NCBI GenBank assembly: GCA_964016885.1
Contig: OZ024740.1
Coordinates: 373,984,001 to 374,048,000 of the forward strand
Length of the DNA stretch: 64,000 bases
Origin: Eledone cirrhosa
Taxonomy: Eukaryota
Direction of reading: 5' to 3'
This document shows positions 4,240 to 63,814 of the stretch, piece by piece. How positions within the stretch are numbered: position 1 is the stretch's first letter; each line of letters opens with the position of its first letter. The notes under the pieces were generated by a model, which was given only the letters and a program-made list of their open reading frames with translations, had not been told where the DNA came from and did not search any database. The translations under genes were made by a program, and so were the position numbers.

Positions 4240-4305
4240 TTTTATCTGATGAGAACATAAATTTTGTTCCAGGATGATGTTGTTTTCGAAATGCGCATAA
4301 TAAAA
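4240..4305 (+). ncRNA. Type I hammerhead ribozyme (family A)
   Basis: UUUUAU-CUGAUGA-helix II-GAA-AUGCGCAU(palindrome)-A-AUAAAA. Helix I is UUUUAU/AUAAAA. Confidence 0.75.
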
Positions 4306-4495
4306 TATATGGAACTTCTTTAACCTTCTTTTAATTACTTCTTTTATATATAAAAATATATATATGTTAATCAATTTCTAGTTGTTATATATATATATAT
4401 ATATATATATATATATATATATATATATATATATATATATATATATATATATATATATATATATATACACATACATACCTACATATATATATGTA

Positions 4496-5602
4496 ACAAC
4501 TAGAAATTGATTAACATATAAATAAACATATGAAACAATCACAGGGGATAATGTTTACAAGTGTGTAAGCACACATAGCTAGGTAGGCAACAAAAATAGA
4601 TACCTTATAATATGAGTAATGATCCCTGTATATATTCCATTAAAGAAATATATTTCACCAATTAATAGATTGGTAAACGACGGAGGCCGGTACTTGTATT
4701 CTCAACAAGGAAGAAGTTCAGCTATCTGTGTTTACGCATCAAGTTCAAATCAGCAACTGGCCAGTAACACGTGCTGTATCAACCATAAATACACACATCA
4801 TACCAGCTTCGTCCCAGTGGCGTGAATAGGGTTATCGACAACTAGAAATAGCAGTCAAGTCCTTTCAACAGAGTTAGCTCTACAATTAAGGAGCCGTATT
4901 TATATATCTATATCCAAAATTAAGATAAATCAAAATGAATTTAATCTAAATCAAAATTATGGGTGTCATGCCAGAAAGGCATGCGCCATATCACCCGTAA
5001 AATAAGCTCTAAGATTCTAATGAATAGGTCCGAGCATTTTATAACAACTAGAAATTGATTAACATATAAATAAACATATGAAACAATCACAGGGGATAAT
5101 TTTTACAAGTGTGTAAGCACACATAGCTAGGTAGGTAACTAAATAAAGTTAACAAGAACTTCAAAAATAGATACCTTATAATATGGTTAGTCTTTCCTGT
5201 ATATATTCCATTAAAGAAATGTATTTCACCAATTAATCGATTGCTAAACGACGGAGGCCGGTACTTGGATTCTCAACAAGGAAGAAGTCCAGTAAATACA
5301 GCACGTGTTACTGGCCAGTCGCTGATTTGAACTTAATGCGTAAACACAGATCGCTGGACTTTTTCCTTGTTGAGAATCCAAGTACCGGCCTCCGTCGTTT
5401 ACCAATCGATTTAATGGTGAAATATATTTCTTTAATGGAATATATACAGGGAAGATTAATCATATTATAAGGTATCTATGTTTGAAGTTCTTGTTAACTT
5501 TATTTAGTTACCTACCTAGCTATGTGTGCTTACACACTTGTAAAAATTATCCCCTGTGATTGTTTCATATGCTTATTTATATGTTAATCAATTTCTAGTT
5601 GT
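4496..5602. mobile_element. About 550-bp non-coding unit, 1.45 tandem copies plus inverted partial copy
   Basis: acaactagaaattgattaac recurs at 4496 and 5044. 5296-5602 is the reverse complement of the unit's first ~300 bp. A short inverted end lies at 4362-4387 across (TA)n. The same unit occurs at 60318-60935. Confidence 0.85.
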
Positions 5603-6496
5603 TAATCAATTCTAGTTGTTAAAATATATATATATGCGTATGTTGTGTTTTTCACTATGTCTTAGTGTGTGTGTGTGTGTGCATGTGTATATCGTTATAT
5701 AAATAATTATATATAAAATAGTATTTATAGTTGCTTGAAAAATAGACATGTCAAACATACATGAAAAGTCAAGAGATATTTATAATATTTAATAACACAT
5801 TCCTTTTCTCTGCCTTAACTTCCTTCAGACCTTATGTCATGATTATTCACACATCAATCTTTTATACAGAAAAAGAATAACAAGTGTTAGAATCTAATGG
5901 TGCACGTGGATTCTATTTTCATAATGTGTACGTTTAATTTCTCACTGACAAGGGTCATTCTCTTTTCCGGATAAATTACTTATTATATATTTCTTCAAGA
6001 TAATGATGAGGGAGAAAATTATTTGAAGTCTACTGCAAAGAGACGTACAGCAGCAACACCACCAACACCATCACCACCATACTATCACTACCATCACCAC
6101 CGGCGGCAACCCCACCGCCAACAGCAACACCTTCAACAACACCACCACAAGCACCAACATCGCAAACTCAACATAAAACACACACACCCAGTGACGACAA
6201 GACAATAGCAAAACCACACTCCACCCCCAAAACGAGAAATGCACAGCAATAAATACACACAAGAAACAAATGACTTACATAATTGAACGCACAGACATTT
6301 CACAGCACGATTACATAATACCAGCACCAATCAAAACACCATTGAACATTAGACAGAAACAATACACTAATATTAAAATGAAATTCCCCAACGCAGTTGG
6401 TGATTTCAGAGATCTAGGAGGGGACGGTTCAGCGGTCGCTTCAACAGACGATCAAGGTAAGTGACCCTTTCTCACTTGCCCCGTTCCTCACCCAAC

Positions 6497-62340: not shown

Positions 62341-62790
62341 CCTTTCTATATATATATATATATATATATATATATATATATATATATATATATACATAAA
62401 CTGAAAAAATGCAACGAAATTTCATTTCTCACTCTTAGTACGGCTTAATTCGGTATGTTATTTTACAAACACACCGAGCATTATGATAAATGTCCGGTGA
62501 ATCCATACGTACATATATATATGTGTGCATGTATGTATATATATATATATATATATATATACATACTACTTTACGTCTGTATACATATATGTATGTACGT
62601 ATACATACTTATATTTAAGTAACAGCCGTACTAAGAGTGATAAATGACATTTCGTTTCATTTTTTCCGTTTATCGTTTTCGGTGCACCCGGCCGATTAAC
62701 TCACTCGATATGCAAATTAGGCTGCTCAGCCGTTAATATGCATAAGTAAATATATACTTTCAGACATTCAATCATCTGGCAGGAAGGTAT

Positions 62791-62833
62791 GCGTTGCTGA
62801 CGATAGCTAATAAGCTTGAAACTAGTACAGCGT
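62791..62833 (+). ncRNA. Type I hammerhead ribozyme (family H)
   Basis: GCGUUG-CUGACGA-U AGCU aaua AGCU U-GAA-ACUAGU-A-CAGCGU, inside a ~443-bp terminally redundant unit (62437-63025). Confidence 0.82.
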
Positions 62834-63759
62834 TCCTATGTCAGTGTTGAACAAATGAGCAACGATGGTTGCTAGACACTGTACGGCTGAATTCGGGATG
62901 TTTGTTTACAAACACACCGAGCATTATAATAAATGTTCGGTGAATCCATATATGTGTGCATGTATGTATATATATATAAATACTACTGTACGTCTGTATA
63001 CATATATGTATGTACCTATGCATACTTATATATATATATATATATATATATATATATATATATATATATATATATATATATATATATATATATATATATA
63101 TATATATATATATATATGTATATATATATATATATATGTACATATGTATATATAGGGTATATGTGTGCAAGTAACTGTGCTTGTAACTGTATCTGTGCTT
63201 AAGTATCCATATATTCATGTATGCATACATATGTGTATCCCTTTATCTGCAATATGTTAATGGGACTCAAGGCATGATGAATTTTAGTGTGAATTAAATT
63301 AGAATAAAACATCATCAATATATGGCGTTTCCTCACACAGACGTGTTTAATTATGCACATAATGATTTATTGCATAATTATCACTGTACACCTCCTCCCA
63401 GTGGAATGGTTCACAGCATCATATATGACAAGAGATGCAGAAATCGATAAATATGAGGAACTACACTGGAGGACAACAGAAACCGCACAAGCTCAAAATA
63501 TTGATCACATCTTGGGCAACTGAAGTATAGATATATCAAACTGAATTCTGATATATATATATATATATATATATATATATATATATATATATATATATAT
63601 ATATATATATAGATTTTGAGTTTATGTTGGTTGTATACCAACACCTCAGTATGCAGGCTGGAGCACTCGACGAAGTGCGCAGGTTGGTTTGGTTACTCCG
63701 GAGTAGTGTAAAATAAAGTTAAATAAAAGTCAAATGATTAAAATTTAGCTTCGTTTATT

Positions 63760-63814
63760 ACTGCTATATATATTTCAGTGACAGCCATCTTTGGCTGTGA
63801 CCTCTTCAGGCAGT
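63760..63814 (-). ncRNA. Type I hammerhead ribozyme (family G)
   Basis: Exact reverse complement of 53833-53887. Confidence 0.85.

Follow-up and report, generated by a model that had tools for sequence, protein, structure and literature searches.

What brought so many hammerhead ribozyme motifs into one short stretch of the Eledone cirrhosa genome? The stretch (assembly GCA_964016885.1, contig OZ024740.1, forward-strand positions 373,984,001 to 374,048,000; all 64 kb of it are called the window below) is 35% GC (65% AT) and holds about 105 TA runs of at least 12 nt. An earlier note on this DNA had described about 20 minimal hammerheads next to Penelope-like elements (PLEs) encoding GIY-YIG endonucleases, and had read the carriers as non-autonomous ribozyme elements mobilised by PLEs that target (TA)n microsatellites. 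The reading we favour, with a probability of about 80%, is that the 16 motifs found complete in TA-flanked repeats are likely pseudo-long terminal repeat (pLTR) ends of PLEs and non-coding derivatives of such ends, likely inserted into (TA)n by Hydra- and Neptune-type enzymes copying uncleaved RNA. Positions are counted from the first nucleotide of the window.

The window was scanned with type I hammerhead descriptors requiring three helices, and the counts were compared with dinucleotide shuffles, a check set beforehand. Strict versions of the descriptor gave 6, 7, 9 and 8 matches, against shuffle means of 0-0.10. A relaxed descriptor, which accepts a C3-G8 or U3-A8 core with helices I and II of at least 3 bp each and a self-complementary helix III, and which tolerates an extra base or U.U at the base of helix II, found 16 complete motifs; the mean was 0.03 in 200 global dinucleotide shuffles (maximum 1) and 0.07 in 200 block shuffles with 300-bp blocks (maximum 1). 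A looser descriptor gave 18 matches against 0.4 in shuffles. The cluster of motifs is therefore real and statistically strong. The complete motifs come from 11 insertions and fall into carrier families labelled A (three), B, C (three), E, F (five), G (two) and H.

Descriptor scans found a hammerhead-like motif at every one of 14 positions named in the earlier note as well as in the array of family F, and the total of about 20 survives as these 16 plus damaged copies. Helix I is broken at 27681 and reduced to 2 bp at 55279, position 17 is a G at 12528, and within the F array unit 1 carries C3A and unit 4 has GAAA changed to GACA. At least eight lesioned copies exist beyond the complete ones, and the count is swollen by inverted duplicates, by the F array and by damaged copies. 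CUGANGA..GAAA strings at 28655, 30093, 30610, 38694, 41492, 43283 and 50022-50234 have no helix I or III and were left uncounted.

The motifs share a common type of hammerhead core, as had been claimed, but not one core sequence: family C and the motifs in PLE 3' untranslated regions (UTRs) use the U3-A8 variant (UUGANAA), previously described in Schistosoma PLEs (PMC4209133), against CUGANGA elsewhere. Nor are all of them minimal, since B, F and H have the 6-bp helix I and the U.U at the base of helix II that mark the retrozyme style. Helix III is generally self-complementary, with one mismatch at 60162 (family C) and two in the 16-nt imperfect palindrome of family B. Duplex energies for helix III run from -3.2 to -10.5 kcal/mol, the weak end of -3.2 kcal/mol belonging to the dimers of E and G, in which helix III is a pure AU repeat. 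The predicted cleavage triplet is GUA or AUA in 16 of 16 complete motifs (A17 throughout), which bears out the prediction of cleavage after NUA. Both are ordinary natural hammerhead triplets; their uniformity across the window is curious.

A search of the whole window with Rfam yielded no hammerhead among the 150 matches listed of 178, and TA-hairpin noise of the miRNA type appeared instead. For family F the best model, HH9, scored 16.5 bits (E 0.34) where the gathering score is 52, a shortfall that lowers membership of Rfam families and not of the hammerhead motif class. Chance assembly in AT-rich, palindrome-rich sequence, to which the 65% AT content, the weak AU-repeat helices of E and G and these Rfam scores would lend themselves, has a probability close to nil in the face of 16 motifs where 0.03-0.07 are expected and of helices that differ in sequence yet pair round one core, itself covarying from C3-G8 to U3-A8.

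The claim of very high density stands for this single 64-kb window, at 250 complete motifs per Mb. Reports elsewhere give about 9,000 motifs for the whole X. tropicalis genome and 126,247 in the 28 Gb of axolotl, about 4.5 per Mb.

Repeats and inverted copies were found by masked self-BLAST, and 13 carriers were compared pairwise (78 pairs). The alignment of families A and E is full-length and takes in the tail (z 9.5, 0/200 shuffles), G resembles each of them weakly (z 3.6-4.7, 1/200 shuffles), the motifs at 12528 and 55279 in two PLE UTRs belong to one family (z 10.8), and B shows a weak likeness to F (z 4.1). By these similarities the carriers therefore appear to form about five or six lineages rather than the eight or so unrelated families first proposed.

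Most carriers adjoin TA microsatellites, as the earlier note had observed, and the adjacency has a direction. In 14 of 15 independent carriers a (TA)n run of at least 12 nt begins no more than 200 nt downstream of the cleavage site, compared with 20.6% of random positions (binomial p 3e-9). The nearest TA run lies at a median of 77 nt downstream of the cleavage site, 324 nt upstream of it, and 735 nt from random positions. Two of the distances in family C (15 nt) belong to an AT run internal to the element, and the flanking run there is likewise within 200 nt. The sole miss is the carrier at 55313, whose end adjoins only a short TA stretch. Hydra-type 3' ends at 12625 and 62347 adjoin long TA runs and the one at 55335 a short one.

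Six GIY-YIG remnants occur in the window, five of Hydra type and one Neptune-like. Hydra-clade PLEs are hammerhead-bearing and insert into (TA)n (PMC8557442, section 11). The first remnant (11540..12624, plus strand) is 5'-truncated and comprises a CxCX5C linker, GIY-YIG, CxxC and a 3' UTR that ends at (TA)n and includes the U3-A8 hammerhead with G at position 17 (about 12528-12573). A second, related end (54372..55335, plus) has the hammerhead with the short helix I in its 3' UTR (about 55277-55320). The third (60952..62346, plus) lies between TA runs; its 3' UTR holds, at 62258-62297 (plus), a perfect 8-bp helix I, GAAA, an 8-nt palindromic helix III and a GUC site, with no CUGANGA and just 12 nt where the core and helix II are expected, so that the motif would be either one whose core has been deleted or an unusual variant. 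Six-frame reading found CxCX5C-GIY-YIG ends in these three remnants, at 11750, 54543 and 61269; the frames 11540-12223 and 60936-61728, interrupted by stops and frameshifts, show CxxC and CxH around a conserved E and N, and no CCHH. For the end at 61269 the Pfam GIY-YIG match has an E-value of 0.002, below the curated cut-off. Two old remnants, 2043..2334 and 45571..45939 (both minus), were found by tblastn with Hydra-type relatives; they match the same relatives, and CxCX5C was not seen in them.

A full HMMER search with one GIY-YIG query returned 3,487 relatives at E <=0.001. CxCX5C is present in 117 of the best 150 of these; the 14 relatives of at least 600 aa among the same 150 have the YRDD reverse transcriptase (RT) motif in 14 cases, DKT in 12, CxCX5C in 11 and RWK in 2. 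CxCX5C, DKT and this RT motif are diagnostic marks of the Hydra clade. Word-indexed protein searches returned nothing for three GIY-YIG queries, and Pfam applied to nine long relatives gave weak RVT_1 or GIY-YIG matches in two only. The remnants share with the Hydra clade of Craig et al. 2021 (PMC8557442) the C-terminal GIY-YIG, the CxCX5C linker, CxxC and CxH around E and N, insertion at (TA)n and the hammerhead in the 3' repeat. They differ in that the window has 5'-truncated ends only, and their number, five, contrasts with the few Hydra families outside cnidarians in that account. The sixth remnant (55395..56560, minus; GIY-YIG part about 55972-56560) has a CxxC linker, YIGET and CCHH-type residues, and matched 2 of 150 Hydra-type relatives weakly in tblastn. 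It may be Neptune-like, Nematis being the alternative. Its 3' UTR has a hammerhead core only (55684), with helix III unclear.

Seven insertions, in families A, C, E, F and G and at two loci of family I (a solo family introduced below), follow a common plan: two copies stand head-to-head, their 3' ends face outward to (TA)n, and a single arm carries a tail. The tails measure 94 nt in A, 76 in C, 110 in E, 41 in F, 99 in G and 57 at the family I-related locus. The predicted cleavage site lies inside each copy that bears a hammerhead and never coincides with a start or an end.

Family A consists of a hammerhead at 4238..4307 (plus; core 4246, predicted cleavage after 4299 at AUA, carrier about 4205-4347) and the insertion 14680..15094, a head-to-head pair with cores at 14866 (minus) and 14996 (plus), the 94-nt tail on the minus arm only and (TA)n on both sides. 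Its homologue E, at 21956..22313, is an inverted pair between (TA)n runs, in which the minus copy has a complete core (22037) and the plus copy (22122) carries U4G and the 110-nt tail; two more E fragments, one an inverted piece of tail, lie at 20043-20195. Family C includes the inverted pair 13895..14258 (complete U3-A8 core 14071 on the minus strand, a decayed plus copy, 76-nt tail on the minus arm) and three further copies: 27546..27753 (minus), which has a tail and the broken helix I; 46216..46363 (minus), with a complete U3-A8 hammerhead, predicted cleavage after 46292 and TA on both sides; and 60121..60268 (plus), whose U3-A8 hammerhead has the single helix III mismatch. The G copy at 53730..53936 (plus; core 53838, predicted cleavage after 53882) lies between (TA)n runs and has ahead of it a short stretch of its own tail end in inverted orientation, and that at 63612..64000 (minus; core 63809, 99-nt tail) has an inverted partner that begins near 63937 and runs past the window end. 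Family B is a single copy ending at (TA)n, with its hammerhead at 13326..13390 (minus; core 13384, predicted cleavage after 13346 at GUA). The one hammerhead of family H, 62791..62833 (plus; predicted cleavage after 62827 at GUA), sits in a locus of partial direct and inverted repeats (62399-63026). No head-to-tail tandem units of A, B, C, E, G or H were found within the window; the copies are solo or head-to-head, with the partial direct repeat of H. A pattern search for family C in metagenome and viral contigs gave 0 matches; one for family A gave six in metagenomes, all without core or helix I, which we took as chance.

Inverted pLTRs with an optional tail have been described for PLEs (PMC3846280; PMC8557442). 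In vitro, a PLE protein of Anolis cuts the two target strands and extends each of them on an uncleaved RNA template, and two internal start sites on the RNA bound the tail, which explains the architecture (PMC11167929). The same steps would account for the carriers here. As a proposal built on PMC11167929 and PMC8557442, a GIY-YIG endonuclease would nick both strands of the palindromic (TA)n, and from each nick reverse transcription would start at one of two sites that lie past the ribozyme with 41-110 nt between them; both ends are mapped in the sequence, and priming at them is our interpretation. Joined at the ends that copy the 5' part of the RNA, the two cDNAs would form a head-to-head pair with a tail on one arm, and short products may arise where copying stops early or reaches a transcript start within the pLTR. 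The likeness to the Poseidon element PAc of Anolis (PMC11167929) lies in the two RT starts past the ribozyme that define the tail and in the extension of both strands; PAc differs in cutting at ATT with a tail of 30-40 nt, against a (TA)n target and tails of 41-110 nt. Just ahead of (TA)n, the tails of A, E, C and G (ends at 14680, 22312, 13895, 27546 and 63612) finish in similar pyrimidine-rich ACTCAC/ACAC sequence, which may be an RT start signal that they have in common.

For these ribozymes the predicted main mode of cleavage is dimeric, by way of the palindromic helix III, as proposed in PMC6765202. Published PLE minimal hammerheads cleave weakly alone, that of the Anolis PLE requires its protein (PMC11167929), and 8 of 9 Xenopus retrozyme dimers lacked activity (bioRxiv 10.64898/2026.07.22.740005). 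Since published PLE and retrozyme hammerheads cleave poorly or conditionally, many of the copies here may be silent. We also considered priming on (TA)n by the 3' end that cleavage would leave (..AUAUAUAUA in E and G), and rejected it, since none of the insertions ends at a cleavage site. A conserved tail hairpin is likewise unsupported, the tails of A, E, G, C, I and F folding differently.

The window also holds a LINE (long interspersed nuclear element) RT remnant at 57969-58487 (Pfam RVT_1, E 1.5e-13), with related copies at 6764-9984 and 24882-26028, and these elements might in principle have moved the carriers. Carriers have no poly(A) ends, and their inversions duplicate one segment with both 3' ends outward; LINE twin priming inverts an upstream, non-overlapping segment. 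A one-sided tail has been described as unique to PLEs (PMC11167929). The end structure largely excludes mobilisation by LINEs, which we regard as very improbable. Mobilisation by PLEs that target (TA)n, as the earlier note had proposed, is well supported by inference from the Hydra-type remnants, the inverted-plus-tail plan and the TA at 3' ends.

Family F gives the fullest view of the product. The array at 35557..37631 consists of 4.9 units of 310 nt on the minus strand, head-to-head with 1.75 units on the plus strand; it has seven hammerheads, five of them intact (GUA), a 41-nt tail on the long arm only and TA-rich runs on both sides. The units are 98% alike, intact consecutive hammerhead pairs occur in both arms, and the array thus falls within the published definition of non-LTR retrozymes (two or more non-coding units of about 170-400 nt in tandem, each with a complete type I hammerhead). 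A circular monomer is predicted to fold at -69.5 kcal/mol (z -4.9). With animal non-LTR retrozymes (PMC7229834; 10.64898/2026.07.22.740005) F shares tandem units that are poor in GC and about 300 nt long, each with one type I hammerhead, and a self-paired monomer, and with axolotl HHR_Amex2 (PMC7229834) the U.U at the base of helix II. It is unlike them in its PLE-type inverted arm, one-sided tail and TA flanks. The sequencing-run search with F had no RNA run among the matches listed, and matches that held a small share of F were set aside.

The F units differ at 18 columns; at 17 of these the variant is private to a single unit, and units at corresponding places in the two arms have no variant in common. 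The private variants suggest that the template units were identical at insertion, as would be expected for a circle or for a very young source array. Both arms begin at nearly equal monomer phase (-104 and about -122), which would also fit a linear multimer with a fixed start. Phase, tail and TA flanks together point to one PLE-made insertion. F is the only clear non-autonomous element, a 310-nt non-LTR retrozyme that probably went in as a multimer, in a single event, by the route proposed above for the monomeric carriers.

An array may instead grow in place from one solo pLTR by unequal crossing-over or slippage. A 2026 preprint (10.64898/2026.07.22.740005) proposes such local amplification, arguing a PLE origin for retrozymes from co-occurrence and trees, and units 1 and 3 of F do have one variant in common. 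The differences among units are otherwise star-like, without nested shared blocks, and both arms are multimeric, start at near-equal phase and end 41 nt apart at TA, like monomeric carriers. For F we consider growth in place improbable.

PLEs were named as candidate movers of retrozymes in 2020 (PMC7229834). A word search of the main texts of that paper and of the 2026 preprint found no inverted arms or tails on retrozyme arrays, and our literature search turned up no paper describing a PLE footprint on such an array, which counts only weakly as evidence of absence. The case for a mover of retrozymes is still argued from co-occurrence and sequence trees, and F bears a PLE-specific insertion footprint; it supplies a defined RNA, two mapped sites at which priming may have occurred, and a (TA)n target. 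We therefore see in F a modest mechanistic clue. A far stronger statement, that F is direct structural proof of whole-array pasting by PLE double priming on circular ribozyme RNA, accompanied by SINE-like (short interspersed nuclear element-like) families living on Hydra PLEs, by a density tens of times above that of any reported animal genome and by convergence of all on NUA, seems doubtful to us.

Whether the remaining carriers are PLE ends or elements in their own right can be approached through solo copies of PLE 3' UTRs. Hammerhead-type motifs at 12528, 55279, 19940 and 62278 and in family I are located in PLE 3' UTR sequence. A solo, non-coding copy of the Hydra 3' UTR lies at 19876..19988 (minus), its core decayed and its end at (TA)n; 19908-19988 matches the Hydra UTR at z 18. 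Family I derives from the Neptune-like 3' UTR, with a solo inverted pair at 27771..28240 that is 85-88% identical to 55518-55741, a related inverted pair at 22398..22917 with the 57-nt tail and (TA)n on both sides, and further related copies at 35161-35476 and 20216-20375. Its cores at 55684 (minus), 27934 (minus), 28038 (plus), 35231 (plus) and about 22675 (plus) have helix II and no clear helix III or NUH, and resemble the 'HHR_core' cases of Craig et al. (PMC8557442). The solo copies of family I share a fixed 5' start (-91 to -109) at a AAGATGGCG-like word. We take this word to resemble a YY1 site. Additional to the earlier note are the inverted E copy at 22122, the solo Hydra UTR at 19908-19988, the core-less motif at 62258-62297, and the GIY-YIG remnant of another clade at 55972-56560 (minus) with the solo family from its 3' UTR.

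Four public sequencing runs were aligned to 27531-28241 (711 nt; families C and I). In an organism designated A, 8,761 contigs and 365,018 of 12.5 million restriction site-associated DNA (RAD) reads align to these 711 nt, and families C and I are highly repeated there. About 80,000 and 90,000 RAD reads extend upstream of family I into one shared sequence (agreement 0.94), which by eye resembles the Neptune-like UTR, and 40 contigs pass beyond the short end of family C into a consensus that finishes in TA repeats. Run X4 had 11 matching records only and was uninformative.

Two solo families in the window match the 3' UTRs of coding remnants, and on that ground the best reading of most carriers is as solo pLTRs or as PLE ends that were truncated. 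We rate it above one in which A/E/G, C, B and H are truly non-autonomous ribozyme elements, SINE-like, transcribed independently from a promoter of their own, fixed at their ends and parasitic on PLE proteins. A 2014 study (PMC4209133) had already interpreted minimal hammerheads that are solo or on opposite strands as truncated PLEs. One point for independent elements is the single 5' end of family C: five copies from four insertions start within 3 nt of one another, -68 to -70 from the cleavage site, and the loose ends upstream of them are mixed in sequence. In the window A, B, C, E, G and H have no coding sequence joined to them, F is plainly non-coding and multimeric, and non-autonomous partners of PLEs are known in retrozymes (10.64898/2026.07.22.740005) and in Chlamys MRC1 (PMC8557442). 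A fixed start is no proof of independence, however, since family I has one even though it is the 3' UTR of a coding remnant; moreover, PLE promoters sit in the pLTR (PMC6765202), so that solo pLTRs are expected to begin at one place. The C copy at 60121 has, by eye, a 9/10-nt block at the same spacing in common with the upstream loose-end consensus, which suggests that some C copies extend further upstream. We hold the independent-element reading to be possible for some families and unlikely overall. The term non-autonomous ribozyme elements, as the earlier note used it, fits F and possibly C, B and H, while both families that could be tested within the window turned out to be 3' ends of coding PLEs.

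Several results weigh against reading the carriers as PLE-derived ends. In organism A, 37 contigs exit family C at the 5' end with poor agreement (0.51), and the shared 5' start of C together with this poor upstream agreement fits a discrete short RNA equally well. The runs of organism A matched 63% of the sampled words of F and may not represent the species of the window, and the RAD reads favour copies in which one restriction site (28159) is present. Within the window, tblastn with the relatives found no full-length PLE and no PLE RT core, no parent element was found for A, B, C, E, F, G or H, and LINE remnants with RT are present as well. The Neptune-like assignment was made by eye, Pfam and the homolog search having given no matches. 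Unconstrained folding recovered the three-way junction for C and G, most others adopting alternative pairings.

The link between PLEs and hammerheads is already established, and the core observation is thus not new; its members here are. Like the minimal hammerheads in PLE pLTRs described by Cervera and de la Pena in 2014 (PMC4209133), the motifs are type I with a short palindromic helix III and include the U3-A8 variant, and they belong to many divergent families per genome that are mostly solo or in opposite-strand pairs 100-700 bp apart. They differ from that set in the A17 of 16/16 and the local 250 motifs per Mb. If the window is typical, the genome is unusually hammerhead-rich and a good source of Hydra-clade elements.

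Other repeats share the window. A repeated family at 4494-5604 and 60318-60933, inverted and tandem and adjoining TA runs, has no hammerhead that we found and is possibly made up of the ends of a hammerhead-less PLE. Another, at 29986-30680, 15842-16203 and 18912-19096, has CUGAUGA..GAAA without helix I or III and ends at (TA)n; it may be a hammerhead carrier that has decayed. Near-perfect inverted repeats flanked by TA and free of hammerheads lie at 3430-3849, at 14437-14626 and 48218-48399, and at 1302-1835. The three decayed, related LINE copies (6764-9984, 24882-26028 and 56827-59866) are 64-74% identical, one of them with the Pfam RVT_1 match. A short dispersed repeat at 10620-11453, 23981-24092, 29155-29340 and 42334-42454, which includes a 216-nt tandem pair, is unrelated to the carriers.

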